Notes under the pieces: model-generated
What the model saw: the letters and a program-made list of their open reading frames with translations, nothing else
Database searches by the model: none
Told to the model about the DNA's origin: nothing
Assembly (NCBI GenBank): GCA_035290865.1
Contig: DATDTM010000047.1
Coordinates: 14,127 to 78,126, forward strand
Origin: Candidatus Nanoarchaeia archaeon
Lineage (GTDB): Archaea > Nanobdellota > Nanobdellia > Woesearchaeales > GW2011-AR9
Reading direction: 5' to 3'
Length of the DNA: 64,000 nt
Program-made: the position numbers and the translations under genes
Shown here: one piece after another, positions 7,249 to 64,000 of the stretch
Position numbering within the stretch: position 1 is the stretch's first letter
Layout of the letters: every line of letters begins with the position of its first letter

Positions 7249-7297
7249 CGGTCCTCTTCTTCAAAATCTGTTTCTTACAACATGATTTATTATACTT

Positions 7298-45524: not shown

Positions 45525-46433
45525 TCAATAAATCTTCTTGATCCAAGTACCTAAAACTAATTGGTACTGTAAACTTTGTTCATATTCATAACTTAAATCC
45601 AAAGTTAAGGTAGTCATATAAGAATCCTGCCCTTTCAGGTAAGTCTCGCAGATCAAAAGCGCTTCCTGTTTTTGGTCAGTAAAGACGAATTTGGTTTCCT
45701 CATTGACAAAATTCTGAAAAGCACATTTCAGAAAATCTTCTCCCCCCAGCTGGGCTTGATTTAATTTCAGATAGCCGATTTTACTATTACTTCCGCTCCA
45801 ACTGCCTCCCCCGTTATTTCGCAGATAGAACCTAAATTCCGCTTTAGTTCCTCCAGCTAAGGGCATCACAATCTCTTCCATCTCTGAGACTGCTACTGGC
45901 GCGCCTTGGCCGGAATAAGATTTCTCCTCCTCCACTTTACAGCCGGAATCATAAACTTCATAAAGATTAGGGTTCAGACAGACTGAATCTGCAAATTCTA
46001 AAGTAGATTCATAGCTAGCTTTAACAAAAAAAGTATTGGAGTATTTTTCTGCATTTCCATATAAAGATCCGGCCAGACCATTAAACTCTAAAAAAGCTTT
46101 ATCCCCGGAAGGATTAATCAGACTTCTCCCCCCTAACTGATTGAAGGGCTGCTCAGTTGGATTAATCTGAAAATAACGATCATCTAAACCCACAATGCGC
46201 ACTTTTCCGTTGATTAAGTCATAAGCTGCTTGATTATCTAATTTAACTATCAGCTTGAATTCTGAATTAGGATACATTTTTTCCGGAGGAGCATTTTCCA
46301 GAAAGCTTAATTGTAATCCTCCATAACCTTGCTTGAAGTTATAAGTAGTTTGTTTTTCTCCGGGAGAGTCGCAGCTGAGGAGAAGGAAAGAAAAAACAAG
46401 TAAAGTAAAGTAAATCATTAGTTTAATTTTCAT
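45525..46433 (-). CDS. secreted lipoprotein-like protein, paralog family 1
   Basis: LLLSCDSP lipobox; clear similarity to the 16064 and 17961 products. Confidence 0.5.
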   Translation of the reverse strand: MKIKLMIYFTLLVFSFLLLSCDSPGEKQTTYNFKQGYGGLQLSFLENAPPEKMYPNSEFKLIVKLDNQAAYDLINGKVRIVGLDDRYFQINPTEQPFNQLGGRSLINPSGDKAFLEFNGLAGSLYGNAEKYSNTFFVKASYESTLEFADSVCLNPNLYEVYDSGCKVEEEKSYSGQGAPVAVSEMEEIVMPLAGGTKAEFRFYLRNNGGGSWSGSNSKIGYLKLNQAQLGGEDFLKCAFQNFVNEETKFVFTDQKQEALLICETYLKGQDSYMTTLTLDLSYEYEQSLQYQLVLGTWIKKIY

Positions 46434-48349
46434 TCTATATTCCCCACAATTTGTTCCAAATCTGAATCTGTTCCTGTTGTTCCATTAGCCATTACTGTTT
46501 TCTGACCTGAAGAAGAGTAAGTATGTTCAACAAATATAAATATGTTTTCATTTAAAGTTAAATTAGTTGGTAAAGTACTTTGAACAACATTTTCACTGGT
46601 ATCGAAAAACCAGTTAAAAGTATTGGGGTAAATAGCCACATTTCTCATAAAGAAACGGAAAGCTGAATAATGAGATTGGTTAGTAAAGAGTAAAGAGGTA
46701 TTGTAAATATCTACTTCCAAAAGCCCATCTACTGCAAAACTGCTGAAAGAAGTAGTATTAAACAATAATACGCCATTAGTATAACTAAATAAAGCACAAG
46801 AAGTACCTAAACAATTAGCCCCATTATTAACTATTTCCAAGCTATCTGTATTATAACCCCCCTGTCTCTTAATTTGGTCTACAAATCCAAAGTTTAAATT
46901 CTTTAAAGTGAAATTTGCGCTAGAGTTTATCTTAGAGTTACTGCCAAAAGCAGAGGTATTCAAAGCAATAGTATTATTCCCGATAAAGAGATTATATCCT
47001 AAACCAATTTCTCCGTCCAGATCCATATCTTTCAAAAGACCATTATCACTAGTATTAATCCATCTAATTTCCCCATAAGAATTATTGTAGACTAAATAGT
47101 TAATATAACCGCTTCCAGTAAGGTCATAAATCTCTGGGGTATTAATATAATTAGCAGAGAGATGGTTATTTAAAAGAAGATTATCTCCTGAATTCATTCT
47201 TAAATAAATTCCGTAACCGCCGTTTCCGGTAGTAATGATGGTATTATTGTTTAAAATATTAAAATTAGAAGCAGTTCTTAATTCAATCCCTGGTGCGCCG
47301 ACAGCACCGGTAGTAACAACATTGTTGGATAAACTGCTAGAGGAAGAATTCATCAATCTGATACCATTAGCAGTGCTGCCGCTAGTAGTAACATTGTTCC
47401 CAAAGATATTTGTAAAATCAGATTGATTGTTTAAAAACATACCATTACTTAAAGCACTAATTATAGTAATAGTATTATTCAGAATTGTTCCGTTCGCAGC
47501 ATGATTAAAATAAACTCCGTGCTTATAAGAAGTAGAAATATTGCCCTCCTGGATGTTACAATTCTTAATCGTAACATTATCAAAACCGATATTTCCCACC
47601 CCATAACCTAAAGTTCCGCCAATAGAATAATTAATTAAATAACCCTTACAATCTAAAACAATGTTATTAACGCCAATAGTAAAACAAGTTCCACTGGAAT
47701 TAATCTTCTGGGTTAAAGTATAAATTGCCCCCGTTGTATCTAAAGTTCCGCATGCAGACTGGTCTGGATCAATATATGCTTGAAAGTTCTGTCCGGAGAG
47801 GGAAAAAGTAAATTGATTATCGCTATATTTAGGAGCCTCGTAAGATATTTTTATTGCAAAAGGTTTGCTGGTATCTATTTGTGCAGGAGTTTTAGTGAAA
47901 CCATAAAACTTTTTCTTAGTAAAAGTATGAATTTGTTCAACTGCTTCTAATTTTCCATCCATACCTTCTTGGACAATTATATCTGTGTAAGTTTCAGGGA
48001 CAAGATTAAATTGATTTGAGTACATTACAGTTTTGTTTTTGATCACTTCTTTTTCAAAACTAAATTGAATTGCCGGGTTGTTCAGAATTGGCTTAATTGC
48101 ATTCTGATTTTCAATTTCAAAAATGGCTTCGCAACTCTTCCAGCCATCATCTACTGCATCAGGTTTCCAGATGCAGGAGATATACGGTTTAGTAGAAGTA
48201 ATTATATTAGAATAATTAGAATGTTTATAACCAAGATTAAATACTTCCTGTCCTTCAAGAATTACTGCAGGCAGAAAATCTTCTGCTAAAACAAACATGC
48301 TCATCAAAAAAAGAGCAAATACTATTCCAAGATATATTTTCTTTACCAT
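46430..48349 (-). CDS. secreted right-handed parallel beta-helix repeat protein
   Basis: Signal peptide; repeated N/G/T-rich ~22-aa units (GNNVTTSGSTANGIRLMNSS..SNNVVTTGAVGAPGIELR..NNNTIITTGNGGYGIYLR) typical of PbH1 beta-helix repeats. Confidence 0.55.
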   Translation of the reverse strand: MVKKIYLGIVFALFLMSMFVLAEDFLPAVILEGQEVFNLGYKHSNYSNIITSTKPYISCIWKPDAVDDGWKSCEAIFEIENQNAIKPILNNPAIQFSFEKEVIKNKTVMYSNQFNLVPETYTDIIVQEGMDGKLEAVEQIHTFTKKKFYGFTKTPAQIDTSKPFAIKISYEAPKYSDNQFTFSLSGQNFQAYIDPDQSACGTLDTTGAIYTLTQKINSSGTCFTIGVNNIVLDCKGYLINYSIGGTLGYGVGNIGFDNVTIKNCNIQEGNISTSYKHGVYFNHAANGTILNNTITIISALSNGMFLNNQSDFTNIFGNNVTTSGSTANGIRLMNSSSSSLSNNVVTTGAVGAPGIELRTASNFNILNNNTIITTGNGGYGIYLRMNSGDNLLLNNHLSANYINTPEIYDLTGSGYINYLVYNNSYGEIRWINTSDNGLLKDMDLDGEIGLGYNLFIGNNTIALNTSAFGSNSKINSSANFTLKNLNFGFVDQIKRQGGYNTDSLEIVNNGANCLGTSCALFSYTNGVLLFNTTSFSSFAVDGLLEVDIYNTSLLFTNQSHYSAFRFFMRNVAIYPNTFNWFFDTSENVVQSTLPTNLTLNENIFIFVEHTYSSSGQKTVMANGTTGTDSDLEQIVGNIE

Positions 48350-51300
48350 TTTGTCTGGTTGATTAAAGTTTCGACTTGTTTACTTATTTCATCTGGAGTT
48401 AAAGTCTGATTTTCCCAGATTACTAAAACATTATTATGTAATCCGACGATATTTGTATAAGCATCGCTTCCGGTGAGGAAATTAAAAACCCAGGTTTGGT
48501 TTCCGGAAATGATTACTTTATCGAATCTTCCGCTTTTCTGGGTATTGTTAAGGTAGCGGACATAGAGCTGTTGGCTAGTATAAGTTTGGTAAGCAATTAA
48601 TATAGAATCAGCAGCACCTTGTTCAATAGCGGTTCTGGCTTCTGATTCATTAGCAGAGATTTTGAAAGTCCAGTTGTAAATTATAAAATTACTTTCTTTA
48701 GCTAAGTCTTTTATCTGGATAGAAAGATCATGTTCTCCCCCAGTCAAAGGAATAGCTGGAGTATAAGTAGTGGTGGTAGTATTGATAAAAGGTGCCACTA
48801 CATCTCCATCAAGTTGTAATATTACTGAAGAAGTATTTACGCCGGAATATGAATCATAATAATTTATTACAATAGTGGGTGTATTATTTCCAACTATAGT
48901 ATTATTAGCTGGAGTAATATTAACTATCTCTGGAGCAAGAGTATCTATCTTAAATACAAAATGAGTTGTATTTCCTAGGTTCCCCACTTTATCTTTAGCT
49001 AGGGAATGAAGATACCAAAATCCATCAGTTAACCCAATAGCATTTTGAGACTGGTTATTTTGGGAAACAGTTCCTCCAATACCAGTGATATTAATTAAAG
49101 AATCCATTGTCCATAAATTCATGATATCTGGGGTGGTTGATTCGTTGTTATTAACTACATAATAATATCCGTAAATGCTTGAATGAATATCTGTTGCTGA
49201 AAAGTTAAAGATAGGAACACTAAGATTATACCAATCATTGTTATTAGGATGCGTGGGCGAAGTTATAGTTATCATACTGGGAGCATCAGAATCTATATAA
49301 ATGTTAACTGGGTTAGACCAAGTGCTATTATGCTGTAAAGCATCCTGAGCATAAATTCGGAATGTATGGCTACCAGAAGTAACATTTACATGATAAGACT
49401 GACTATTTCCTAAACTAAACAAATTCCCATCAAGTTCTCCAACATAACTTACCACTCCGCTGCCTATATCCCCAGGATTAGTCCAAGTATAATAAGGACT
49501 ATTATGTTGGGTCCAATTATCTCCAGAATGCAATTCTTTTATTATAGGCGTACCTGGATTAGAGGTATCAATATATAAACTTACATTTCCGGAATGACCT
49601 AAATTACCGGGATTATCCACTGCCCGAACATAAATAGTATGAACCCCTTCTGTTTGTGGTAGAGTAATAAAAGAAGTATTTAGTCCTATATTGTTCCAAC
49701 TTCCAGCGTCAATCCGGTACTCGTAATGGTTAATTCCATTAGTGTCCTCCACTGGATTCCATGAGATTGTATGGATATTTTGAGTACTCCAATTATTTGG
49801 AGAGGAACTTAAAACTGGTGCTAACGGAGGGATTACATCTCCCACAAAGATACTTTTAGTATAAATGTTATTAGACTCATTTGACTCAATAATAATATTA
49901 TAATAATCCGCATTAATTGTAATGGTGTGATTACTATAAGTAGAATTCCAGCTAAAATAGGTAGAGTTAGTAGAAGATTTGGTTACAGATAAGTTCTGTT
50001 CTTGAACATTACTATTTACTGTAAATCTTACCACAAAATTATTGGCATCTGTACCTCCTTCGTTACGGATAATTATATTTACTCCTAAAACCTCTGGTTC
50101 AGCTGGATTTAGCGGGGTTTGAATAATATCACTTGCATCTAAAGTTAAGTCTGCTTCTGCAGGATTAATCGTTATCGGTTGCTGTCTATTGTCTTTTAAA
50201 TCGGAAACATCTGTTGCTGTAACATTAATCTGATAAAACCCTGGTGCTGCAGGAGCAGTAGTAAACCCCTCATATAAATCAGAAGAAGAATTGTAAGTTA
50301 ATAAAATAAGAACATTATTAACCGTTGCATTCACTGTACTAACATTAAGATTATCAGTTACGTTCACTTTTAAAGACAAGTTAGCATTAACATAACTAGT
50401 ATCAACAATGATAATCTCGTTAATCTGGGAAGTTGTTTTATCCTTCACAAGAACAGATAAGTTTAATTCATTGTTATTTTCGTCTGATTCAGTGATATTA
50501 CCTAATGGGTCTACTCTAAGGGTTAAAAGATGTTGGCCGTAATATGCAGGCCATAAGAAATAAGCGGTATTACTTGCATCTGAAAGAATATTTAAGCTTT
50601 TGTTTTGATATAATATGCTGTCAACAAACAATTCCAAAGTGAAATTATTTACTCCAGTCCCACCATCGTTATGAACAATCACGGAAAGATTGGTTAATGT
50701 TCCGTCAGTAAGAGGAAGCGGAAAGAGATGAATATCATTGCTAAATAAAGTTAAATCCGGGATTGTTGAGTAAATTTCAAGCGATATTTTTTTCGTTGTC
50801 GCTAGGCCGTTAATATCTTTAGCCGTGATAATTAACTCGTAAATTCCTGCATTAGGTGCAGTAAAAGTATTTTCGTATAAAGCGGAGGTAGAGTTATAAT
50901 CTAATACTAAAGTAGTATTACTAATTGTAGCTGTTACTACGCTAATATTAACATTATCAGCTATATTTACTTTAATTGTGGATGGAGTTCCTTCTACGGA
51001 ACCATGCAGAATTTCGCCTATAATGGGGGGAGTAACATCAAGAATAGAAATATTAATACTTGCTTCATTATTTAACTCGTTTGCTTCAGAAATTATATTA
51101 GAGGCATCAGTCTTAATCGTAATGCTATGATTCCCATAAGTTGTTGTCCAGTTAAATTGCGTAGAACTATTTGATTGGTTCGCTATCGATAAAGTTTTAC
51201 TCTGATCAGAGATGTCATCAATTAATAGTTCAACAATAAAATTATTTGCTGGTTGATCACCTTTATTGTAAACTGTTGCATTGAAAATTAACAACTGATT

Positions 51301-54300
51301 TTCATACAACACTTTTTGATCGTAATGGATATCGCTAGAAGTCAAAGTCAAATCCGGGTCCTCACTATGAATTGAAAGACCACCAGTAGATTCTGTAGCC
51401 CCCGACGTAGAATTAGTGGCGGTTAAATTAACCCAATCACTAGCCATCACGTAAAGAGTATATTCTCCAGGACTACTTGGAGCAATTAGAACTCCTTCGT
51501 ACCATCCGGAAATCTGATTATAAGTTAGAGTTATTGATTGAGTTGAGAAAGTAGCATTAACTTTAGTTAAATTAATATTATCAGTGGCATTAACTTTAAC
51601 AGTAAGATTACTGCTTACATTAGCGGGGTTAGGAATAATGATAAGGTTGTGAATCTTCGGAGAGATATTATCTGAAACGGAAAAATCGACAATGATATCT
51701 GAAAGATGGATAATGCCCTTACTAGACGTAGTGAAATTCAAAGGGACAAGACAATTATTGTTCTGGTCCGGGGTACAAATAGCTAGGTAATCATTAATCG
51801 CAGTAATGTTCAGATCAACTTCTTGCGGTGAATTTGATTCATCCAAAGTTCCAGCGTATTGATAATCAATAGTTCCATCATTTCCTGTATCTTCATCTAT
51901 GCTGGTTGGATATCCAAAAGTAATGAAGAAATTATCATAATCGACGTAACTGATATTATCATTTTGATAAGCAGGACAATAAGTAAAGTTCAGATTTGTG
52001 TCTAAAGTGGTATCGTTTCCTATTGTAATCTCCGAAGCACTACAGAATACATAAACTTTATCTTCAATATCAGAATTGTTAAATATTCCTAATCTATTTT
52101 CATTACCAGTTAAAGCAAATTTATGAAAGTTATATGCTGGAGAAAGCCCGCTGTATAACACATCATCAAAAGAGATACTATTTGAAACATTCCAAAGATG
52201 TTCACTGATTGAAGCTGAACCTTCATTACCACCTCCCAAACAAGACCCACCACAGGAGTTACAGCCACCACTGCTACCTCCATTACCTTTATCTCCATTA
52301 AAAGTAGTGATGTTTTTTGTTTTGACTTCTGTTGCAGTAAATATAGAATGCGATTTTTCAGCGTTAACTCCATTACCACCTTGACAATTCCAACCAGCAT
52401 CATTACTATCAGAAGCCCCTCCATTGCCCCCATTACCACCATAATAATTTAAACTGGTTGAATTAATGATGATAATAGATGATGATTTATTTCCATAGAG
52501 ATAAATAGTGCCACGACCCCCAATGCCTCCATTTCCTCCAATAACCGTTCCAGTATTAACACAAGAACCTCCGGTTTGATAAGCATGTCCCCCATTCCCT
52601 CCTTTTCCCCCGTAAGAATTAAGAACTGAATTATCAATTTTTAAGTTATTTTTGATGTAAAGTTCTATTTTCCCCTCATATCCATTCCCTCCGTTATCCC
52701 CATAATGAGTTCCATCAGAAGGGCAAGTTTCCTCAAAATCAGAACCTTGAGAACCTTGGTTACCATACCCATTAAGTGTTGCATTTGTAATATTGATCCA
52801 TCCGTAGGTGGTATTTAACCGGATTAAACCGGGTGACCCTTGGCCATTAATTATTGTATCATGCACCCAAATAGAAGCATTATTTGTGTCGATGTAATTA
52901 CCGGAAAGAGTGCCATTACAATTAATAATATTTCCTTCAACCTCAACGCAGCCAGAGATTGCCGTGGGATCTAAGACAAAAGTATATCCTAACAGATTAA
53001 GAGTAACATTAAACTTAAATTCTTCTGCACCAATGGGAATATCTTCCAGACTATAATCTAATAACTCGCTTTTATTGACGGTTAAGTCTAAAGTATCTTT
53101 GATATTTCTCTCTTTAAAACTATATCTTTTAGAATTATCTAAACTGATATTAAAGTCTGTCTCACCAAGATTAAATAAAGTATTAGTAATATTTATTCGG
53201 ATTATACAGTTCTGTAAACAATGATAATATTCCTGGTCTGTTTCTATCTTTAGATACTGGCTGAGATCAGCAGAATTTCTATAGATTATCTCTTTACCAC
53301 TCAGCTGGACTGCATTAAAATTTAAGTGAGCAAAGCTAATGTTCTTTTGTTTATTTCCCTCAGCAAAACCGGGGTCTTCTTTAGTTAAGACAAACGAATA
53401 TTCTTCACCTATAGTTAAATTCATTAATTCCTGCCATGTTCCTAAACATTGGCTATTAGAGAAATCCCATTCTTTGCATTTGTAAAGAGTTTCCCCTTCT
53501 GCGATGGAAGTAATCCTCACAGAATCAAATTCCAAATTTTCAGGGTTAACGGCATAAACGTCTTTAAATTCTAAGTCTTCAAAAGAATCTATTTTTGGAT
53601 AGCTTAAACCCAATTCTTCATTCTCATTAAGTCTTATATTTTTAAATTCAATCTTAATCTCTGGGTTATCTTCTGGAATAATAGTTAAGTTATAAACCAC
53701 ATTTTCAGGTTCATCTTCTAGCTCATCTTTAGAATATAGACTAAAACCAATTAATTCTCCATTCTCATCTTTAACTTTAAATTTATATTTTAGAGGAGTT
53801 TTATCTATTGGTTTTTGATTAATTTTAATTTCTAAATTAACTGAATTTGGAGAGATTACTTCATCTCCGGAATAATTTGCAATAATAGTATAAAATCCTG
53901 GAATTCTACTAAATGTATCCCAGTTTATTTCTGCTTTCCCTCCAATATCAGTAATATCTGAACCCAAATACTCATCTGCATAAAAGTCTATTTTTTGGTC
54001 TGGAATCGGGGTTTGATTATTATCCTTCAGGAAAGCTTGGATATTAATTATCTCCCCAACAATAGCAGTTAGTTTATCTATTATTAAAGTTAACGCAGTG
54101 GAGATACTAGTGGATTCATATATTGGTTCAGCCTCATTAATGGGCAACCCCAGGGGTAGATTAATAATTGCTCCTGTTGGAGTCTGAATAGAACCATTTA
54201 CTGATTGAGTAACATTTTCCTCTAACTGATTCTCAATAGGAGTTAGATTTGTTGATAGTTCTTCACTTTCTACCGGAATTCCAAGAGTATTATTTACTGT

Positions 54301-54384
54301 TTGAGAATCATTTTCCAAAGCAAGGACTAAAGTTAAAAATAGTAAAAACGATCCAAAAATAATAATTCTTTTTTTCTCTATCAA
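48343..54384 (-). CDS. giant (2013 aa) cell-surface protein with Gly-rich, Ig-like, CARDB and FN3-like modules
   Basis: Signal peptide; GGNGGNG/GGKGGNGG glycine-rich block; three CARDB-like repeats (LTLTSSDIHYDQ...PANNFIVELLID, LTLFSNDIHLFP...GVNNFTLELFVD, LTLDASDIIQTP...DANNFVVRFTV); FN3-like PPLAPVLSSSPNNW...HYEYRIDAGSW. Confidence 0.7.
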   Translation of the reverse strand: MIEKKRIIIFGSFLLFLTLVLALENDSQTVNNTLGIPVESEELSTNLTPIENQLEENVTQSVNGSIQTPTGAIINLPLGLPINEAEPIYESTSISTALTLIIDKLTAIVGEIINIQAFLKDNNQTPIPDQKIDFYADEYLGSDITDIGGKAEINWDTFSRIPGFYTIIANYSGDEVISPNSVNLEIKINQKPIDKTPLKYKFKVKDENGELIGFSLYSKDELEDEPENVVYNLTIIPEDNPEIKIEFKNIRLNENEELGLSYPKIDSFEDLEFKDVYAVNPENLEFDSVRITSIAEGETLYKCKEWDFSNSQCLGTWQELMNLTIGEEYSFVLTKEDPGFAEGNKQKNISFAHLNFNAVQLSGKEIIYRNSADLSQYLKIETDQEYYHCLQNCIIRINITNTLFNLGETDFNISLDNSKRYSFKERNIKDTLDLTVNKSELLDYSLEDIPIGAEEFKFNVTLNLLGYTFVLDPTAISGCVEVEGNIINCNGTLSGNYIDTNNASIWVHDTIINGQGSPGLIRLNTTYGWINITNATLNGYGNQGSQGSDFEETCPSDGTHYGDNGGNGYEGKIELYIKNNLKIDNSVLNSYGGKGGNGGHAYQTGGSCVNTGTVIGGNGGIGGRGTIYLYGNKSSSIIIINSTSLNYYGGNGGNGGASDSNDAGWNCQGGNGVNAEKSHSIFTATEVKTKNITTFNGDKGNGGSSGGCNSCGGSCLGGGNEGSASISEHLWNVSNSISFDDVLYSGLSPAYNFHKFALTGNENRLGIFNNSDIEDKVYVFCSASEITIGNDTTLDTNLNFTYCPAYQNDNISYVDYDNFFITFGYPTSIDEDTGNDGTIDYQYAGTLDESNSPQEVDLNITAINDYLAICTPDQNNNCLVPLNFTTSSKGIIHLSDIIVDFSVSDNISPKIHNLIIIPNPANVSSNLTVKVNATDNINLTKVNATFSTQSITLTYNQISGWYEGVLIAPSSPGEYTLYVMASDWVNLTATNSTSGATESTGGLSIHSEDPDLTLTSSDIHYDQKVLYENQLLIFNATVYNKGDQPANNFIVELLIDDISDQSKTLSIANQSNSSTQFNWTTTYGNHSITIKTDASNIISEANELNNEASINISILDVTPPIIGEILHGSVEGTPSTIKVNIADNVNISVVTATISNTTLVLDYNSTSALYENTFTAPNAGIYELIITAKDINGLATTKKISLEIYSTIPDLTLFSNDIHLFPLPLTDGTLTNLSVIVHNDGGTGVNNFTLELFVDSILYQNKSLNILSDASNTAYFLWPAYYGQHLLTLRVDPLGNITESDENNNELNLSVLVKDKTTSQINEIIIVDTSYVNANLSLKVNVTDNLNVSTVNATVNNVLILLTYNSSSDLYEGFTTAPAAPGFYQINVTATDVSDLKDNRQQPITINPAEADLTLDASDIIQTPLNPAEPEVLGVNIIIRNEGGTDANNFVVRFTVNSNVQEQNLSVTKSSTNSTYFSWNSTYSNHTITINADYYNIIIESNESNNIYTKSIFVGDVIPPLAPVLSSSPNNWSTQNIHTISWNPVEDTNGINHYEYRIDAGSWNNIGLNTSFITLPQTEGVHTIYVRAVDNPGNLGHSGNVSLYIDTSNPGTPIIKELHSGDNWTQHNSPYYTWTNPGDIGSGVVSYVGELDGNLFSLGNSQSYHVNVTSGSHTFRIYAQDALQHNSTWSNPVNIYIDSDAPSMITITSPTHPNNNDWYNLSVPIFNFSATDIHSSIYGYYYVVNNNESTTPDIMNLWTMDSLINITGIGGTVSQNNQSQNAIGLTDGFWYLHSLAKDKVGNLGNTTHFVFKIDTLAPEIVNITPANNTIVGNNTPTIVINYYDSYSGVNTSSVILQLDGDVVAPFINTTTTTYTPAIPLTGGEHDLSIQIKDLAKESNFIIYNWTFKISANESEARTAIEQGAADSILIAYQTYTSQQLYVRYLNNTQKSGRFDKVIISGNQTWVFNFLTGSDAYTNIVGLHNNVLVIWENQTLTPDEISKQVETLINQTKW

Positions 54385-57300
54385 TTTTGAACTCCGTATC
54401 CTGAAATATTCAATTTAGCATTAGTAACATTAGCTGTTTTCGGTAATTTAATATAGACCACTTGGCTGCCTGCACCGGCATAAGTAAGATTTTTAATGTA
54501 TGAACCATCTGAAAGCGTAGTAAAGGTTAAACTTCCTGGACCGACAACCGGTATAATTACATTAGCGGTAGAACTTACATTATGGCTATCTGTAGCCTTT
54601 AAAGTAATTTTGTGAAAACCAGAAGAAAGATTGTTTAAAGTAAAAGCGTTCCCGGTCCCGATTACCCCATCACGGTCAGAAATCCAGACTAAAGAATTTC
54701 CGGAAAGATTACCATCTTCATAATCTTGAGCAGTGCCTTCAAAAGTAATGTTCCAGCCTAAAGAATAGACTGAGCCAGGAACTGGAGAAACGATGGTAAC
54801 ATTCGGCGGAGCAGAGATTACAGTTACATTTACAGAGACATTAGCACTTTGGTTATCATTATCTACTGCTGCTAAAATAATTTGATAAGATCCAACTGTA
54901 AAATTAGACCGATTAAATTCTGTCCCCGAACCTAAATTACCATTTAAAGAAGATTTCCAGGACAGAGAATTTCCGACTAAAGAACCGGTTTCAGGATCAG
55001 TTGCTATGCCCTTAAAAGTGAAGAGAACTCCATTAATTATCTGTTGATTATTTGTAGGAGAGATTATCGATACTATCGGTGGTTGAGGCTCTAAAACCAC
55101 AAATTGAGTCTGGTCGAGCCCAGTAAGGCCATAACTATCCATTACTGAAGCAGTAATCAAGTGTGCACCCTGAGATAAGGCTTTAATAAAAGATAAGCCA
55201 GTTCCAAGATACCCATCAAGACTGGAAGTCCAGTTTAATTTTGAAGATAAATCTCCATCATGCGGGTCGGTGGCAGTTCCATTAAAAGTGATGCTGTTTT
55301 CGGTATAATAAAAGGTGGCATTATTTTCTGGTAAAGTAATATTAATTATAGGAGTAGATTCTTCAATAATAATGCTTAGAACACTAACTGCACTTACCTG
55401 GCTAAAGTCGGTGGCATTTAAAGTGAGGTTATGTACCCCAACACTTAAAGAGTTAGTAAAAATGGTTCCGCCGCTACCTAAATAACCGTCGATACTTGAA
55501 GTCCAAATAAGAGCGTTACCCATTATGTTCCCATCTTCAGGGTCTAAAGCTTTACCATCCAAATAAACTGTTGCTCCTTCCGGGAAAGCCTGGCTGTTAG
55601 AGGGAGAATTTATGGTTATTACTGGTGGTTGTGAAGCCAGAACCAAAATAATTACCTGATCAACGTCTTTATTTCCATCAGAATCTTCCACAGTTAAATA
55701 AATAACCTGATCTCCCAAACTAAGGTTAGCATAGATTAAAGAGCCGCTACCAAGATAACCATCTTTACTGGAAGTCCATTCATACAAAGATTCATTTAAA
55801 GATTCATCTTTATAATCCGTGCCATACCCTGTAAGAATAGTTGGCAGATTGACATAAGCTGGTGCCCCGTTAGGTGGAGCGACAATCGAAGTAGTAGGCT
55901 TAGGATTAACCACATTTACTAACTCGTTGATTTGGTTGTTAAGTTCGTTTAGTTCACTGGTAACATCAGTGTAATCAACCTCAACACTAATATTACGTAT
56001 CCCAATAACGGAAAAGTTAGTTAAGATGCTGATTAAAGCAGTTTCGTTGCTGGCAAGATTAGTTATTTCCTTTTCCCCGATCAAATACTGGGCAGTATAA
56101 TCATTGGGAGAAGTATAACTCTCCATATATTTTAATTTAAAATTACTGGCATTAGCCGGCCCCTCATTTCTAACTGCAACTGTAATATTTAGAATTTCAT
56201 TAGCATCCGGGGTTAGGGAAGAAAAGCCTAAGGCAAGAGGAACTAAATCCGGTTTATTGGGGTTTTTTAAAGTGGCAAAGTAAACTGAATTATTTTCTGC
56301 GGCATAAGAATAAAGAGTGGCATTTTCTATCAATTCTGCAGTATGATTGCCTAATTCTCCTTCCACTTCCGGGTTAACCTTAGTTAATTCCACACCGCCA
56401 TAAACTGTATAATCCCACCAATTCCAGCCATTATTATAATACTGGAAAGAGTACAAATATTGCCAGGCTTTGGTTTCATAATAGCTTTGATCAAAGTTTT
56501 TGTAAAGGCCGGAGAGATTGTTAGAATCAATTAGCTTATTGTAAATTATATTTTCTCCCGGCTGCTTTTTATACCATTGAGCTAGGGCAATAGAAGCGTG
56601 GGCTCTTCGCAAGGCTTCATATTTTGGGTCAACATTAACTTTTATTTCAGCTTCAGCCGCAATCTCAGCTAAGCCCGCTTCAAGGTCAGCTTTGAATTGC
56701 GCTAATTCAGCCTGGTAGCCGCCGCCATTTACCCAGACTGCGTCCACTACAGAATTAACTTTTAGGGTGGAATTAGTGATAAATATTTTGCACCCGGTTC
56801 CATTTGCAGTTACGGAATCTGAACTGATCCAGACCCGGGCATAGAAACCAGGCCATTTGCTGGGATCGCCAACAACATTCTCTTCCCAGTTGTTAACCAA
56901 ACTTTCAACTAAATTCTGGCTTTGGCCAAAATGATCCATTTTGAGTTGGACGTCGGCATCAAACATAATCTGGCCTAATTCCGTGTGGGATAAGTTACCA
57001 TCAACTTTAGAAACATCACCCACTTTTCCTGCGAAACCCGGGCCAGGCTTAGTATCCATGGTCACCCACATTTTGTGATTAGGGACAATTAAGCTGGTTA
57101 AGAAAGCGTTAGTAGCTTGGACGGTAGCGTTAGTGATATTGATCAGAACATCAGTTGTGTTAGCTTCTTTTCCTTTCATCACGGCGACAAAACCTTCTTG
57201 AGGATCGCAGGTAGAGATATAGTTGAGATTAGCGGAAGTGAAGTTGATGCCGCCGGTTTTTTCTGCAACGTCTTCAGGGGAAGTGTCTATAAAATTTGTA

Positions 57301-58334
57301 GTAAGATCAAAACCACCATACTTTCCAGAGACTGAACTGGCATAAACTTCTAGAGTCCAATTACCTGCTTGCATTTGTGGTTTATTTATCGTCAAACTTT
57401 TAGTGTAGGAAGTGCTCAAATCAGAAGCAACAACAGTACCGCTGGGGTTGAGCACTCTTAATTGTAAGTAAGATAATGAAAAGAAAGGGTCAACCTTGAA
57501 TCCTTCTTCTTGCCCGTTAAGTGTAAGGTAGAATTTCCAGGTCTGACCGTTAGCAATTCGGGCGGAAAGAGATTCTCCTATTTGAATACTCTGGGCAAGG
57601 AAAATGTTGTCGTAGTAATAATCGAACATCCACTCCCAGACTTTCCCTGTTAGCGCCCAGTATTGGGTGCCCCATTGAGTCATATAAGTTCCATCACCTT
57701 TTGATTTATTTGCTACCTGACCAGCTATATATGCAGCATTGAGAATATTTTCAGTTCCTGTCCCGTTGTAAACTGCATAGTAATCCCAAGTATAGTCTAC
57801 TGCTTGATTTCCGTCGTTGGTGTTAGAATTATTTTTATACATTTGGTCGCAGGTGAAGTCAACGACATGGGCGCCGGTTTCTTTCCACTTTTTTGTATTT
57901 TCAGTTTCATATATTTTAATAGTATACCACGGAGCTAATTTTGTTGCCATTGCACCTGCTCTAAGACTTTCTGTTGGCCATAAGATAGAAATCGCTGGTG
58001 CCCATTCATTTGGAAGAACATCTTTAACATAAGTTTTGAAGTTCAGTGTTTGTTTTGAAAAACCAGGTGTTCCATCAATAATTCTATTTTTAATGTAAAT
58101 ATCCAAACCTAATTGAGAACCATTACCATAATTGTTAACTAAACTAGGGCAATCTGCTTTTTCTGCATTAGTAAAACCGGTAATTGCTACAGTTATGTTT
58201 ATGGGGAATTGTTCGATATTAGCATGAGCAAATTTAATCATGAGAGATAGAACTACAACAAAAAAAATTGTTCTAAACCAACGTCTCTTCAAATAGATCA
58301 TATATTTCCTCTTTTTAGGGGAGCCTTGTACCAA
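54381..58334 (-). CDS. large (1317 aa) surface protein: N-terminal SpoIID/LytB-like domain, CARDB domain, five ~90-aa Ig-like repeats
   Basis: [32 protein letters not shown] parallels the SpoIID/LytB consensus [34 protein letters not shown] parallels TTHCQVY; repeats PPVITINSP...DPEDGN...[12 protein letters not shown] five times; [14 protein letters not shown] (CARDB). Confidence 0.65.
   Translation of the reverse strand: [1317 protein letters not shown]
57059..57270. repeat. ~210-bp near-identical dispersed direct repeat, copy 1 (inside the 1317-aa gene)
   Basis: gtcacccacattttgtgattaggga[c/t]aattaagctggttaagaaagcgttagt...gaagtgaagttgatgccgccgg occurs at both loci. Confidence 0.8.
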
Positions 58335-59028
58335 TCCTTATAATATATCTCTTATTCACAATTTTTTTTAAGCCATTTTTTGTGATAAATCCAGTTATCC
58401 CCATTTTTCCACTTGCTTCAACTTTAATATCATTTGCTAGTTCTAATTGTACTTCTTTTGTATTCTTTTCAAAATTCTCCCATTCTTCAATTCTAAAATG
58501 AATAAACACCGGGACAAATTCCTCTTTCTCTACCCTTTCCCATAATTGATCTTCAATCAGAGGACCGACAAGTATTCCCATTTTTTCTCTTTTCTCATCT
58601 AAAACAATTTGGTCTTCTATCATAAAACCCAACTCTTGTTGACTCTGTTGAAAATCTGGTGCTTGTGCAATAACTATCTCTTTCAGAACTTCCATCTTAT
58701 ACTCTTTCTCCGAAACCCCTTCATTCACTTCTCCCGGTAAGTCCTTCGCTTTACTCTTATTAATCATTCCAAAGATTACATTTCCATAAGTTTTACTTTG
58801 CTCGGTATCGTTAATTACTAGACCTTTCGCTTTCAATTTCTCCAGAGTTTCATTAGTAATAGAATCTACTTTAACCGCAACCGAGATGATTTCACCGGTT
58901 TTAATTTCCTGCGGAATTTCTTTCACTGCACAGCCGGCGAGAAATAATATGCTAAGCAATAGAACAAATATAATACACCTTGCTTTTTTCATCTGTTCAC
59001 TCATTTTATTTTTGAATACTTCTGACAT
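58315..59028 (-). CDS. lipoprotein-like protein B1 (classic LAGC lipobox), partner of the SpoIID-like cassette
   Basis: ILFLAGCAV; paralogous to the 59765-60472 product (KGLVINDTEQSK / KGLIVSYETSEN, ...PVFIHFRIEEWENF / PAYIKFRMEYWGDN). Confidence 0.5.
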   Translation of the reverse strand: MSEVFKNKMSEQMKKARCIIFVLLLSILFLAGCAVKEIPQEIKTGEIISVAVKVDSITNETLEKLKAKGLVINDTEQSKTYGNVIFGMINKSKAKDLPGEVNEGVSEKEYKMEVLKEIVIAQAPDFQQSQQELGFMIEDQIVLDEKREKMGILVGPLIEDQLWERVEKEEFVPVFIHFRIEEWENFEKNTKEVQLELANDIKVEASGKMGITGFITKNGLKKIVNKRYIIRIGTRLP

Positions 59029-59796
59029 TTATAAAACCTCTTTTCTATCAATAACATAGAACTTCCATGTTTGCCCTTTGGCAATCTTAGCAGAGACGGC
59101 ATCACCAATCACCATATTCTTCGCAAGAAAAGAATTGTTATAGTAATAGTTGAGGATATATTCCCAAGGCTTGCCGGATTGAACGAGATATTGAGAGCCC
59201 CATTGGCTCATTTGCAGCCCAGGATATTCTACGATTTCTTTTTTCCAGATACCGTCTGTGCCTTGGTAATGTAAGGCTTCGAGGACTTTTTCTGTTCCGC
59301 TGTAATTCTTTTCAGCGTAGTAAGACCAAGTGTCATCGACAGATTGGTTCGTTTTTAGTTGAGTGGTTTCGTCGTACATTTGGTCGCAGGTGAAGTCTAC
59401 TACATCGGCACCGATTAATGACCACTTTTGTGGTTCATCTACTCTATACCAACCATATAATTTAACTGCCATCGCACCTGAACGAAGGCTTTCTTGATTC
59501 CAAGTAGTATTCCATTCGTTATCCAATACCCTTTGAGTATATAATTTCAAAGGAACAGTATCGACAGTAACAGTATGATTTTTGATATATTGTTCCAAAC
59601 CATCTCCGTGAGTAGCTTCAAGTTTGGGACAATCTGTCTTTTCATCCCAAGAAAGATTTGTGATAGCTACTTTTATACTGTCTGGAAAAGTTAACAAATT
59701 TGCAGAAACATCTATGGATAAAAATAACACAATTCCTACCACTAGTACAGCTATAGCTCCTTGCTTAATTATTACAAGTTTTGGTTCCATTTTCAA
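59029..59796 (-). CDS. stand-alone secreted SpoIID/LytB-like domain protein (paralog of the N-terminus of the 1317-aa protein)
   Basis: [44 protein letters not shown] and YYYNNSFLA are all shared with the 54381-58334 product; nucleotide similarity to 57560-57900. Confidence 0.55.
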   Translation of the reverse strand: [255 protein letters not shown]

Positions 59797-60472
59797 ATAC
59801 AGTGCAATGAGGTATACTCAAGTCTCTCCAGCCAATATCTAATATACATTCAACATTTCTTAGTTTATTAACTCCTTCTTGAGTTATCTCTCCTTTAAGA
59901 GCCCCTCTCTCATCCTCTTCTAATTTAAAATCTGCTTTACTTAACCGTGAATTTATTTCATCAAGACAGATTTTACTATTATCACCCCAGTACTCCATTC
60001 TAAATTTTATATACGCTGGAGCGTACTCTTTATCTTTTAATTCTTCTAACAATTTTTTTCTTATATAAGGTCCAACAGTAATATTCTCTTTAGCTCTAGC
60101 CTCATCAATAATATTCTGCATATCTTTGTCCGTTAACTGCTGGCTTTCTTTCTTCTTCACCACTTTAATCTGAGAATTATTTTGTAATTTACCAAACTCC
60201 GTTTTATTAATCTCGCCGGTCAAAACTAAGTTTTCACTTGTTTCGTAAGAAACTATCAATCCTTTCTGTTTCAAATCTTCAATAACGCTGGCAGAAACAT
60301 TCTTATCAACAATAACATTAACTTTTATCTTATCTGGACTTACGGATGGTTCTACCGGAACTTCTTCTTTAGCACATCCAATAATAATTAGAATCAATAG
60401 TACTAATAATATCCCAATAAACAAACTTTTTTTTCTCATCCTACACCCCCCTTCTTTCACTTTAGTAAACAT
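59765..60472 (-). CDS. lipoprotein-like protein B2 (IIGC lipobox), paralog of B1
   Basis: See B1; follows the stand-alone SpoIID-like gene in the same order as in the first module. Confidence 0.5.
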   Translation of the reverse strand: MFTKVKEGGCRMRKKSLFIGILLVLLILIIIGCAKEEVPVEPSVSPDKIKVNVIVDKNVSASVIEDLKQKGLIVSYETSENLVLTGEINKTEFGKLQNNSQIKVVKKKESQQLTDKDMQNIIDEARAKENITVGPYIRKKLLEELKDKEYAPAYIKFRMEYWGDNSKICLDEINSRLSKADFKLEEDERGALKGEITQEGVNKLRNVECILDIGWRDLSIPHCTVFENGTKTCNN

Positions 60473-60479
60473 TCAATCT

Positions 60480-60704
60480 TTATAAAGCCTCTTTACCACT
60501 TAAAGATATGCTTTTGATAATTGGATTCTCTCGCACAAAAGTAATCAACAAAACATCTCCGCACGGCGATTCAAAAACCATGGTCACCCACATTTTGTGA
60601 TTAGGGATAATTAAGCTGGTTAAGAAAGCGTTAGTGGCTTGGACGGTAGCGTTAGTGATATTGATCAGAACATCAGTTGTGTTAGCTTCTTTTCCTTTCA
60701 TCAC
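60480..60704 (-). pseudogene. truncated duplicate of an internal segment of the 1317-aa surface protein gene
   Basis: [30 protein letters not shown](I/V)PNHKMWVTM is identical in both; the DNA at 60580-60790 matches 57059-57270 with about 3 mismatches. Confidence 0.5.
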
Positions 60705-60790
60705 GGCGACAAAACCTTCTTGAGGGTCGCAGGTAGAGATATAGTTGAGATTAGCGGAAGTGAAGTTGATGCCGCCGGGAGCGGCTGCTG
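60580..60790. repeat. ~210-bp near-identical dispersed direct repeat, copy 2 (gene fragment)
   Basis: As copy 1; divergence begins exactly at the repeat borders. Confidence 0.8.
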
Positions 60791-60879
60791 GGTTACTAGC
60801 ATCTGATGCTTTCGGAGTTATTCCCAGCTTGAAATCAGCGAAATCTTTTTCAATTTTCTTTCCGGTGACATTAATCTTT

Positions 60880-62664
60880 CTAGCTCACTACCTCATTAAA
60901 ATTTATCTCCACGCTCTTACTGATCAGATAATCATAATCTAAACTGGCCAGGAAAGTTTTCGGCACCCAATCTTTAGTATTTTTCAATTCCACAGGATAA
61001 TCTTTCACCTGACATTGGGGCCTGGAAATTATTTTCTTATACCCGGAAGCATCGATATTGGTCTCGTAGAGACATTGAGAATTATCTACTACAAAACCAG
61101 GCAGCTCAATCTGAAATCGTTTTACTAATAAAATCTTTCCCATCCCCACATTTTCAATATTGGAGATTAAACTTAAAGTTTTAAAGGGCTTGTTTTCGAT
61201 TATGGAATCTTTCTGTACATGCCCTAGATCAAAATTGATCTTAGCAAATTCTTTGGGCGCTCTGGATTCTTTGATCGTAACGATCTTATTTATTTCCGGC
61301 ATTAAAGCTTTTTTCTCTTCAGGAGTTTTATCTCCGATAAACGCTCTCTGTAACAAAGACTGGGTATTCAAATCTAATAATTTTGCAGAAAATTCTAGAT
61401 TATAACTAGCATTAAGCACTTTTCCTTCCGGAGGATAGCATAAGAAAGTATTGCCTAATTCTTCTTCTTTAAATTCAATTGCTGGAGAGGTGCTTGGCTC
61501 AATCCTGCCTAAGAAACTCTCTTTAGAAATCTTATCCGTAAAATTACAATACATCTCCGCTTTAATCACTAATTTTCTAGGATTCTTTATTTTCAGCTCT
61601 ACCGGAAAGGGCAGATTCGCAGCATAAAATTGGGGGAAATAATCTTTGTTTATGACTAATTCTGCGCTGGTAGGAATTTTGATAGTAGGATCAATCACTC
61701 CTCCCACCATTAAAGAAACTTCTTCTTTCTCTTTTTTCTTTTCAGCAATGCATGTTTCAAATTCCGGTGTACCCTCTTTCTTTTTCTCCATTTCAGTACA
61801 GCTATAACTCAATTCAGAATATGCTTGTTTCTCTTCTACACAGCCCTCAATATTAGTATATTCTCCTTCTATTAAACATTTTAAGTTCGACCAGGCAGGA
61901 TTTTCTTTTTGGGGCAATTGTTCTCTTAATCTCGCCTGAGCTTCCTCAAATTCTGTTGCGCTGGGCAATAAAGATTGGTCATAGCCTAGATTAGGAATGC
62001 TCGGAGCTACGAAAACAAAGATCAAGTACATTATTCCCACTATTCGAGTTAAATTTATAGCCACATTAGCGAACTTGCTCTCGCTGGCCTCTGCAGGTAA
62101 AGTTAATAAGCCAAAGAAAGCCCACCAGGGCATGAATAGGACTAAACTTTCCATCAGCGGAGTAATAGGCAGGCTTAAATTTTCCGCTAAGAAAGCAATT
62201 AACCCAATATCTAAAAAAAAGAAAATTACTGGAATAAAACCTAACAATTCTGGTTTAAGGCTCTGTCCTTTGGAAAAGACTCCAAAAATAAGTGAAATAA
62301 TTAATATTCCAGCTCCGAAATAAAGCAGGAATTCTGGGTCATAATTTCCTCCAAATAAAAAGTACCAGATTACGAATATTAACATCGGAATTAATATTGC
62401 GCTACGATTCTTTTCAGTTTTCTGGGCTAGAGCATATCCCGCTAAGATAAACAAAGTCAAAGAGAAAACAAAAGTGATTGCCGATGCTCCTCCCGTAGTC
62501 AAACGCAAAATAAAATGGATTACTCCTAGAACCACCATCATCCAACTCAAGTTTTTGGCTGCTCCGCTCACTGCTCCTGCCGCTTCGCTGGCGCCAGCAG
62601 ACTTTGCTGCTGCTCCTACCTCTCCAGAAGCTGCAACTTTCGCTGCCTCACCAAAAAGTGTCAT
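60880..62664 (-). CDS. polytopic membrane protein (~8 TM) with large C-terminal extracellular domain, hypothetical
   Basis: Ala/Gly-rich N-terminus, 7-8 hydrophobic helices, then ~330-aa Cys-containing soluble domain. Confidence 0.5.
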   Translation of the reverse strand: MTLFGEAAKVAASGEVGAAAKSAGASEAAGAVSGAAKNLSWMMVVLGVIHFILRLTTGGASAITFVFSLTLFILAGYALAQKTEKNRSAILIPMLIFVIWYFLFGGNYDPEFLLYFGAGILIISLIFGVFSKGQSLKPELLGFIPVIFFFLDIGLIAFLAENLSLPITPLMESLVLFMPWWAFFGLLTLPAEASESKFANVAINLTRIVGIMYLIFVFVAPSIPNLGYDQSLLPSATEFEEAQARLREQLPQKENPAWSNLKCLIEGEYTNIEGCVEEKQAYSELSYSCTEMEKKKEGTPEFETCIAEKKKEKEEVSLMVGGVIDPTIKIPTSAELVINKDYFPQFYAANLPFPVELKIKNPRKLVIKAEMYCNFTDKISKESFLGRIEPSTSPAIEFKEEELGNTFLCYPPEGKVLNASYNLEFSAKLLDLNTQSLLQRAFIGDKTPEEKKALMPEINKIVTIKESRAPKEFAKINFDLGHVQKDSIIENKPFKTLSLISNIENVGMGKILLVKRFQIELPGFVVDNSQCLYETNIDASGYKKIISRPQCQVKDYPVELKNTKDWVPKTFLASLDYDYLISKSVEINFNEVVS

Positions 62665-62749
62665 CCCATCTTCCTCTTTTTTTATATGTTAAACCTATTT
62701 TAAAAATAAAAACTAAAAAAGTAATCTAATCGGCCCCTAAATACCATAA

Positions 62750-63946
62750 CTACTTCACTAAATCCACCCGAAGTTCCTGTACTTCAATGGTTTTATCCGG
62801 CTTGACTTTCAGGGCATTATTACCCTGGACAATATCATCACTCAAGTCTAAGATGTAAGTTACCTCTTTGGTATCAAAATTCTTGGCATGGCCGTTAAAG
62901 ATTAATTCTCCATATTTGCTGCTGACTACGTCCACAAAATTTAAGGTAGCCCGTAATCTTAACTTTTCATCCACCACGTCCTGATACTGTTCGTAAGATA
63001 CCTCAAAATAATAAGTGGGATATTCAACCTCTTTTAATTCTGATTCGATTTTGATATTAGAGATAACATAAGTTCCTTTACTGGTCAGGAAAACAATCTC
63101 ATTCTCTCCAGAATAAACCAGGCTGGGAGAAAATTCTAAGGGCACCATGGACAACTCACAGTCAGGAATGGCAGAATAAATTTCGTTGCCGTTAATTAAC
63201 ACTTCCAGCTTCCCCGCTTTATTTGTATCACAGTCTGGCTTGAATTTTAATCTTATTTTTTCCAAGTTTTTCTTCTCTGTTTCCGAAACTAAGAAAAGAT
63301 TCTTGGAAGCTTGAGATTCCAGATTAGTCACATCAGAAACTACTTTCAGTTTTTCTACCTGGATCGAATTAGTTTTCCAGAAAGCTGCTCCCACTCCCGA
63401 AGTGCTGAACAACAATTCATTATTTTCTTGGATGGAATTTTTAGGAAGATTGACTACTAACGATTCTCCTGCGGTGACCTCTGAACTGAAAATTTCATCT
63501 CCATTTAAACTAACCAATAAATCTCCTTGGGCAGATTTTACGGTAAAGCTTAACAAGAAATCCTCGGACTGGTCTAAACTGGGCACCGTAAACTTAAAAT
63601 TGCTTTGTTCTTCAGAGAAAGCGCCTTTTTTCATGCTGGCTACATTCTTTTCCGCTAGAATCTTACTTTCAGTTTTAGTAAAGATAGTAGTTACCGGAAG
63701 CGGGTGTTCAATCTCTTTTTGATTCAAAAAATCAATCTTTCCCGGAGAAACTTTCAATAGATTAATCTTGACTTTGGCCTCATCGATCACTTTAGGGGCG
63801 GTGCTGGTAGAAGTAGAACTTTCTCCTAATAGTTCCGCTCTTTCCTGAGGCGGGATTAAAACAATAAATCCCACTAATAAAGCGGCAATGATTACCAATA
63901 AGATGGCTGCTCCCGCAGCTGCCTGACCTCTTTTACTTTGGTTCAT
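62750..63946 (-). CDS. type IV pilin-like (class III signal peptide) surface protein
   Basis: MNQSKRGQAAAGAAILLVIIAALLVGFIVLIPP fits the archaeal prepilin signal: basic residues, KRG cleavage-site-like motif, hydrophobic helix; ~360-aa beta-rich C-terminal domain. Confidence 0.5.
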   Translation of the reverse strand: MNQSKRGQAAAGAAILLVIIAALLVGFIVLIPPQERAELLGESSTSTSTAPKVIDEAKVKINLLKVSPGKIDFLNQKEIEHPLPVTTIFTKTESKILAEKNVASMKKGAFSEEQSNFKFTVPSLDQSEDFLLSFTVKSAQGDLLVSLNGDEIFSSEVTAGESLVVNLPKNSIQENNELLFSTSGVGAAFWKTNSIQVEKLKVVSDVTNLESQASKNLFLVSETEKKNLEKIRLKFKPDCDTNKAGKLEVLINGNEIYSAIPDCELSMVPLEFSPSLVYSGENEIVFLTSKGTYVISNIKIESELKEVEYPTYYFEVSYEQYQDVVDEKLRLRATLNFVDVVSSKYGELIFNGHAKNFDTKEVTYILDLSDDIVQGNNALKVKPDKTIEVQELRVDLVK

Positions 63947-64000
63947 AATTAAAAGTAAGAAAATCTTTTAATATATAAAGTATTCTGTTTTTGTAAATAC

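Follow-up and report, generated by a model that had tools for sequence, protein, structure and literature searches.

What is the 398-aa surface protein encoded at the edge of this locus, whose N-terminus has the look of an archaeal pilin? To our knowledge, no member of the Woesearchaeota, which are DPANN archaea, is in culture. A preliminary description had the protein, here the product of gene 1, as a pilin-like adhesin with a class III signal peptide, standing at the end of an island of surface-protein genes. The whole stretch of DNA analysed, 64 kb in length, is referred to below as the window. An archaeal RNase P RNA is present in it at 25583-25947, and the window is therefore archaeal; a tRNA scan across the window found none.

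The ORF translation gives the N-terminus of the gene 1 protein as MNQSKRGQAAAGAAILLVIIAALLVGFIVLIPP / MNQSKRGQAAAGAAILLVIIAALLVGFIVLIPPQERAELLGE. The gene and the elements around its start and end are:

62750..63946, minus strand: gene 1, an open reading frame with an ATG start, 398 aa; a Woesearchaeal surface protein with wide conservation
63972..63979, minus strand: TATA-like box TTTATATA, ~29 nt 5' of the gene 1 ATG, read off the sequence
63926..63946, minus strand: leader MNQSKRG (aa 1-7), a short basic n-region with an R-G end and a putative class III cleavage site between G7 and Q8
63854..63925, minus strand: hydrophobic helix QAAAGAAILLVIIAALLVGFIVLI (aa 8-31), membrane anchor or pilin-like alpha1-N; a helix at 9-30 in the AlphaFold2 (AF2) model
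63821..63853, minus strand: juxtamembrane motif PPQERAELLGE (aa 32-42), conserved
62665..62749, minus strand: spacer between gene 1 and gene 2, with T-runs and a second TATA-like element, from sequence

The ~29-nt distance from this TATA-like box to the ATG makes the start codon credible, and with it the short leader of 7 residues; a transcript initiated from the box would be nearly leaderless. The T-runs and the second TATA-like element of the spacer suggest that gene 1 may have transcription of its own. In a 50-sequence alignment, A10, A11, G12 and A14 of the helix are conserved, and P33, R36, A37 and L40 of the juxtamembrane motif are invariant; distant members keep the motif as LPPxERxxLL. 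A Sec signal peptidase I site was considered and rejected: the sequence lacks A-x-A, and its h-region has a length of 23 aa.

Does the N-terminus carry a class III signal? The FlaFind regex ([KRDE][GA][ALIFQMVED][ILMVTAS]x3 plus a hydrophobic tail) matches the gene 1 protein at R6-G7-Q8-A-A-A, followed by the 23-aa hydrophobic helix. The window has 118 ORFs of 60 aa or more, and the only other match among them is a shadow ORF inside a 2013-aa gene. In other words, gene 1 is the sole genuine ORF of this set that fits the pattern. In each of the 120 close homologues, a [G/A][Q/E] pair precedes the conserved P-x-[E/D]-R-A motif by 26-29 residues (KRGQ in 86, KKGQ in 8, KRAQ in 4, others in the remainder), and since the spacing is kept in every one of them, the class III-like motif of gene 1 is not a chance match. 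The signal pattern proposed for this protein in the preliminary description is thus borne out. K5, G7 and Q8 are each at least 90% conserved in the 50-sequence alignment, where only Ala substitutes for Gly; in distant relatives Ser also replaces Gly at -1.

The residues around the putative site point to one type of peptidase. The specificity of EppA from Methanococcus maripaludis is set by residues -2 to +2, and a Gln at +1 is essential (PMC4390842). The gene 1 protein has this arrangement, with Lys/Arg-Gly at -2/-1 and Gln at +1 (R6-G7 followed by Q8). The +1 Gln is found in 111 of the 114 close homologues that have a [KR][GA] motif (120 analysed) and in 100 of the 130 distant representatives that have it (143 analysed, drawn from the top representatives of a profile search). 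A small residue at -1 with Gln at +1 is, as judged from these residues, what an EppA-type prepilin peptidase site requires, and cleavage of the leader is plausible. TFF system 1, the Epd/EppA type, has been reported in DPANN, as have class III signal peptides on binding proteins that are not pilins, one of them a galactose-binding-domain protein encoded in the Epd locus (bioRxiv 10.64898/2026.04.22.720090).

Nearly all members have [KR][GA]Q, and across the wider family the full pattern is looser. Of the 120 close homologues 63 pass the strict FlaFind pattern, and of the 143 distant representatives 26 do; with a relaxed pattern, which allows Gly at +2 to +4 and Ser at -1, the numbers rise to 102 and 70, respectively. 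Few distant members pass the strict pattern because 2-14 small or polar, sometimes charged, residues part the Gln from the hydrophobic core, a spacing that is atypical for class III substrates. Pfam Class_IIIsignal (PF04021) and Pilin_N (PF07790) match neither the gene 1 protein (E<=0.1) nor 50 family members (E<=1), and NCBIfam TIGR02537 arch_flag_Nterm does not match the gene 1 protein. The chances for a class III site in gene 1 therefore seem evenly balanced: the site is plausible, and it appears not to be canonical across the family.

These results bear on an alternative, namely that the N-terminus is an uncleaved signal anchor. According to this model, the protein is a type II membrane protein in which leader and helix set an N-in/C-out topology through Sec/SRP, and [KR][GA]Q together with AAGAA serves helix packing or the recognition of a partner such as the 7-TM product of gene 2. 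The length of the hydrophobic segment, its lack of an A-x-A site, the failure of the strict pattern in most distant members with their polar inserts after the Gln, and the absence of any pilin-N or class III match in Pfam and NCBIfam all argue for it, as does the observation that A10-A11-G12-x-A14 is as conserved as G7-Q8. However, a cytoplasmic Gly/Ala-Gln pair that is kept in 120 of 120 close homologues is exactly the -1/+1 rule of prepilin peptidases, which topology alone does not explain. Furthermore, not one charged residue lies between Q8 and the hydrophobic core in the 118 of 118 close homologues scored (those of the 120 in which the motif [G/A/S]-Q was located), and the same segment is uncharged in 89 of the 123 distant members scored. 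We regard the signal-anchor model as rather unlikely.

If the leader is cut, where is the peptidase, and is there a pilus for the protein to enter? Pfam searches that covered practically every ORF of 90 aa or more in the 64-kb window found no Peptidase_A24, T2SSE or T2SSF, which agrees with the earlier statement that the window holds no assembly ATPase or peptidase. The search was extended to 90 related loci, in which ~8-10 kb around gene 1 contained no T2SSE-type Walker A motif, FlaK-like ORF, platform protein or small pilin. Motif scans of 1.27 Mb (the window plus the 90 loci) revealed no further small proteins of the [KR][GA]Q type, and clustering of the ORFs of related loci gave housekeeping neighbours only. 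A FlaK seed sequence was checked against PDB 3S0X and its database matches, of which the named ones are from Methanococcales only, were used to make a FlaK-family HMM; this HMM found nothing at E<0.1 in the same 1.27 Mb. A GxGD multi-TM ORF that adjoins gene 1 in related locus L016 was rejected as a candidate, being a presenilin-type SPP and not an A24 peptidase. The literature on Woesearchaeota with prepilin peptidase, pili or FlaK returned general statements on DPANN and no direct one. The absence of peptidase and pilus genes from 1.27 Mb of related sequence is a further point in favour of the signal anchor. A pilus connection, which the preliminary description had implied, finds no support in the neighbourhood of gene 1.

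The strongest form of that connection is a modular minor or tip pilin, in which the cleaved helix would be built into a type IV pilus-like filament by machinery encoded elsewhere and the head would serve as an adhesin for host attachment. Several lines of evidence are consistent with it. The motif is class III-like with the EppA-type +1 Gln, the head is CBM-like, TFF loci of systems 1 and 4A have been reported from DPANN, class III proteins of the adhesin type are known, and M. maripaludis has standalone pilin genes away from the machinery. On the other hand, neither the window nor the 90 loci place an ATPase, platform protein, peptidase or small pilin beside gene 1, and its operon partners are a non-TFF 7-TM protein and lipoproteins. 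The other objections to a tip pilin come from the ectodomain, the rate of conservation and the position of the gene, all of which are described below, and together they make this model quite improbable.

The structure of the mature domain was modelled, as the preliminary description had proposed. An AF2 model of the gene 1 protein built with the 50-sequence alignment (mean pLDDT 84) consists of the helix at 9-30, a Pro32-Pro33 break, a short helix at 33-39, a disordered linker, and three beta-sandwiches. The parts predicted to be extracellular are:

63782..63820, minus strand: Ser/Thr-rich linker (aa 43-55), pLDDT <50 for residues 41-52; length and sequence vary in the alignment
63323..63781, minus strand: jelly-roll domain 1 (aa ~56-208), AF2 model
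63032..63322, minus strand: jelly-roll domain 2 (aa ~209-305), AF2 model, with invariant Cys239/Cys263
62753..63031, minus strand: beta-sandwich domain 3 (aa ~306-398), AF2 model

By hhalign, homology between domains 1 and 2 is detected (94.8%, E 5e-8), and the similarity of domain 3 to either is weak and below significance. The invariance of Cys239 and Cys263 suggests an extracellular disulfide between them. In the AF2 model the ectodomain has a beta-jelly-roll fold, and the globular head of the earlier account is, on this model, a tandem array of CBM-like jelly-rolls on a flexible stalk. Is it a pilin head? The alpha-beta domain of pilins is absent from the model, and the helix does not run on into, or pack against, a globular domain as a pilin helix does. 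What stands of the proposed pilin-like adhesin with a large globular head is a large extracellular all-beta ectodomain of three jelly-rolls, CBM-like and compatible with binding; what is not supported is the pilin fold, given the Pro-Pro end of the helix, the disordered linker, and the lack of a pilin domain or a pilin Pfam match. The modelled break and linker, set against the continuous helix-to-domain packing of pilins, also count against a tip pilin.

What might the domains bind? No curated CBM or Pfam family includes them; across the family the matches were sub-threshold only, to domains of a similar kind (BPA_C, CBM-like and Glyco_hydro_2_N; best E 0.01-0.05). A sequence-profile search of the PDB with the 50-sequence alignment gave no match (best E 0.93), and Foldseek matches to the ectodomain had TM-scores of ~0.2, the jelly-rolls being generic. 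From the similarity of the modelled fold, the domains may bind glycans. Foldseek also returned jelly-roll matches to birnavirus capsids at low probability. A phage or virus origin of gene 1, which would be based on these low-probability matches, was rejected.

Gene 1 does not stand alone. In related contigs it is followed on the same strand by a gene for a ~600-aa protein and then by one for a ~300-aa protein, with Pelota, TrmB and PheRS upstream of gene 1 and divergently transcribed. The corresponding genes of the window, and the segment that parts them, are:

60880..62664, minus strand: gene 2, 594 aa; 7 TM helices, a Cys-rich helical bundle and two Ig-like ectodomains
45525..46433, minus strand: gene 3, 302 aa; a Cys-rich lipoprotein with a lipobox (LLSC)
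46379..60888, minus strand: island of 14.5 kb between genes 2 and 3, outside the triad, defined by a break in blastn collinearity

Gene 2 is 43% identical to the second gene of related locus L001 and gene 3 is 49% identical to its third. Of 80 species-representative loci, 60 extend at least 4.5 kb downstream and were scored; both partner genes are present in 56 of these 60 Woesearchaeota species loci. In the species loci, genes 2 and 3 are separated by a median of 60 bp and never by more than 281 bp, and the triad is also kept in divergent family members. Gene 3 has paralogues in loci L088 and L089, all of which bear lipoboxes, and the window encodes a signal peptidase II (lipoprotein signal peptidase), which would serve a lipobox of the gene 3 type. 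Gene 1 is thus part of a core three-gene operon that is order-wide in the Woesearchaeota and is predicted to act in the envelope. The shared synteny implies that the three products may associate physically.

Where, then, does the island end? In locus L006 (GCA_053531555.1), which has ~86% nucleotide identity to the window, genes 1-3 are contiguous and there is no island. By blastn, collinearity of the window with L006 extends from 63992 down to 60889, breaks there, and is resumed at 46378. Because collinearity holds on both sides of 46379..60888, the island has been inserted into the operon, and gene 1 belongs to the core sequence that flanks it. The placement of gene 1 within the island in the preliminary description is corrected by this comparison, and its position outside the surface-protein island speaks against a tip pilin as well. 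By Pfam, the island encodes a NosD-like protein of 639 aa, a CARDB protein of 2013 aa, a SpoIID/CARDB/Big protein of 1317 aa, and duplicated lipoprotein/SpoIID modules.

How widespread is the gene 1 family, and how fast does it evolve? A search at E<=1e-3 retrieved 272 homologues that match over the full length, those listed being 52-95% identical, and a profile search of 1.84 billion representatives retrieved 1174 clusters at 50% identity. The named organisms are Candidatus Woesearchaeota or Nanoarchaeota MAGs. All homologues that bear a name are called hypothetical, save for one that JGI labels 'SRPBCC', a label without support from the fold, and neither Pfam nor NCBIfam has a family for genes 1-3. 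Across species, the median identity to the window protein is 53% for gene 1, compared to 63% for G3PDH, 59% for the GH3 enzyme, 32% for gene 2 and 38% for gene 3. Because the value for gene 1 is close to those of the neighbouring enzymes, its product behaves like a constrained core component of the envelope and not like a diversifying host adhesin. It is among the best-conserved extracellular proteins predicted for Woesearchaeota. The idea of a variable adhesin is accordingly not supported, and such strong conservation, unlike that of host-contact adhesins, is the last of the objections to a tip pilin.

The same conservation could reflect lattice contacts. According to such a model, gene 1 encodes an abundant membrane-anchored building block of an S-layer or envelope lattice, or the anchor of one, and genes 2 and 3 form its base. 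In favour of it, gene 1 is single-copy and core, a TATA box of its own precedes it and T-rich sequence follows its stop codon, its tandem beta-sandwich domains are of a kind found in many archaeal S-layer proteins, and its place beside a SecY/EMC3/ribosomal-protein region is conserved in L088. However, archaeal S-layer proteins are usually larger, fast-diverging and Sec-signalled, and no structural match was obtained. We consider a lattice subunit very improbable.

The explanation that we prefer, tentatively and with a confidence somewhat short of even, is that gene 1 encodes a CBM-like protein of the envelope that is tethered to the membrane, has a class III signal or anchor of the EppA type and acts with the 7-TM protein and the lipoprotein(s). 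The short basic leader and the 23-residue hydrophobic helix would insert the protein N-in/C-out, and the leader would probably be cut between G7 and Q8 by a class III signal peptidase of the EppA type whose gene would lie elsewhere in the genome. The mature protein would stay tethered by its helix, as in the Sulfolobales bindosome with its class III-processed binding proteins. A flexible and probably glycosylated Ser/Thr stalk would keep the three jelly-roll domains off the membrane. These three tandem domains, which resemble carbohydrate-binding modules, would form a surface complex with the 7-TM Ig-like protein and one or more lipoproteins, and the complex would function in glycan binding or envelope organization.

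A bolder and unlikely proposal is that the triad is an unrecognized, Woesearchaeota-wide envelope apparatus, made up of a class-III-anchored triple jelly-roll protein, a 7-TM Ig-like protein and one to four lipobox lipoproteins. Such an apparatus might be the base of an attachment or surface layer, processed by a prepilin peptidase without a pilus, and might offer giant host-interaction proteins a site for docking and co-expression, to which the frame-coupled splicing of the 14.5-kb SpoIID-bearing island between genes 2 and 3 would point. What could be new is the conserved triad itself and the insertion of giant surface proteins at this site.

Either way, the family comprises over 1100 clusters at 50% identity, lacks a Pfam model and has two fixed partners. 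If pilin-type processing is true, the idea of a 'functionalised class III protein' extends to DPANN, and metaproteomics, cryo-ET labelling and glycan-binding assays gain a concrete target. Otherwise, the family is still a good marker of, and an entry point to, the Woesearchaeal envelope. The boundary of the island is also corrected, in that the island is inserted in the operon and leaves gene 1 out.

How does the gene 1 protein compare with known systems? Among ectoproteins with tandem CBM or jelly-roll domains, BcsB (bacterial cellulose synthase subunit B) is C-terminally anchored and has flavodoxin-like domains, and the identity of the gene 1 protein to it is ~10%; its partner BcsA has a cytoplasmic glycosyltransferase domain, whereas gene 2 has none. 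Like modular type IV pilins such as PilB of Streptococcus sanguinis (PMC8179133), the gene 1 protein has a pilin-type N-terminus followed by a putative binding module. However, in modular pilins the pilin fold is complete and the genes belong to pilus loci, and neither is seen for gene 1, the fold being judged from the model.

With the EppA-processed pilins of M. maripaludis (EpdA-E, TFF system 1) it shares a short basic leader, a K/R-G end, a +1 Gln and a hydrophobic helix. The Epd pilins are small proteins encoded within or close to a pilus cluster of 11 genes, and they have a match to Pfam Class_IIIsignal. Unlike them, the gene 1 protein is 398 aa long, has a linker and three jelly-rolls, lacks a Class_IIIsignal match and is encoded in a non-pilus operon.

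Another parallel is offered by GlcS, AraS and TreS, class III-signal substrate-binding proteins of the Sulfolobales bindosome. These proteins differ from the gene 1 protein in their cargo, which is a periplasmic-binding-protein fold and not a triple jelly-roll. They also differ in their setting, because no ABC transporter lies near gene 1, whose neighbours are Pelota, TrmB, PheRS, the 7-TM protein, the lipoprotein and G3PDH. In the binding proteins of the bindosome, the class III helix acts as a membrane tether. Like them, gene 1 joins a pilin-type N-terminus to a large non-pilin ectodomain and is encoded away from assembly machinery. The protein falls in no curated family; in kind, it would belong to a known class, that of archaeal class III-signal proteins with non-pilin cargo.

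The conserved triad is split in the window by a 14.5-kb insertion (46379..60888) that lies between genes 2 and 3. The three genes of the triad are as follows:

62750..63946, minus strand, gene 1, a 398-aa surface protein
60880..62664, minus strand, gene 2, a 594-aa protein with seven transmembrane segments
45525..46433, minus strand, gene 3, a 302-aa lipobox lipoprotein

The inserted block, or island, is missing in the close relative L006 (GCA_053531555.1, ~86% nucleotide identity to the window), in which the triad is contiguous. The reading frames of the island overlap, and a 4-nt overlap was also found between the last island gene and the start of gene 3. The GC content of the island is ~0.34 across roughly 46-54 kb and ~0.37-0.41 across 54-58 kb, compared with ~0.37-0.40 in most of the window. 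Three giant secreted proteins are encoded in the island:

639 aa, NosD-like
2013 aa, three CARDB domains
1317 aa, SpoIID, CARDB and Big_7 domains

SpoIID is a domain for peptidoglycan remodelling. Its presence in an island protein is a hint that the partner or prey may be bacterial.

The island also contains an internal duplication (59029..60704) made up of three reading frames:

59029..59796, a 255-aa SpoIID protein, paralogous to the N-terminal part of the 1317-aa protein
59765..60472, a 235-aa lipoprotein, paralogue of a 237-aa lipoprotein (58315..59028)
60480..60704, a 74-aa ORF

The 74-aa ORF is likely a pseudogene remnant, because a stretch of ~40 residues from the 1317-aa protein recurs in it nearly unchanged.

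Several proteins of the window carry a lipobox, including gene 3 (LLSC) and the 235- and 237-aa proteins (LAGC/IIGC). A bacterial-type lipoprotein signal peptidase II gene (28320..28784; Peptidase_A8, E 6e-33) is present in this archaeal genome, and no Lgt was seen within the 64-kb window. A second surface-type protein of 562 aa (11383..13071), distant from the island, matches He_PIG, Big_9 and the thrombospondin type 3 repeat.

Elsewhere in the window, two genes contain inteins, namely those of the replication factor C small subunit and Cbf5/TruB (20399..23437 and 30836..33298), and both inteins include a LAGLIDADG homing endonuclease domain. An archaeal RNase P RNA was found at 25583..25947 (123 bits), and ARAGORN detected no tRNA genes across the 64 kb.

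Downstream of the triad, gene 3 is separated from a bacterial-type NAD-dependent glycerol-3-phosphate dehydrogenase (43483..44439; GpsA family, including GPD_NAD_C_bact) by a toxin-antitoxin pair of a HepT-like RNase and an MNT nucleotidyltransferase (44436..45066). At the position equivalent to the pair in L006, a 100-aa nucleotidyltransferase gene (Polbeta/NTP_transf_2) was called, and no HepT-family gene is among the genes listed there. Many Woesearchaeota have the dehydrogenase conserved shortly after the triad; among the 80 species-representative loci, a homologue was detected in 34.

Among the related loci, on the short contig L016, where no gene 2 or gene 3 homologues were detected, a presenilin-type signal-peptide peptidase (6866..7747; Pfam SPP, GxGD) lies directly downstream of gene 1, a single occurrence in one MAG. 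In the divergent family members L088 (10001..17506) and L089 (13343..15251), gene 1 is ~160 residues longer, at ~560 aa with 22 Cys, and 2-4 tandem paralogues stand in place of the single gene 3 lipoprotein.
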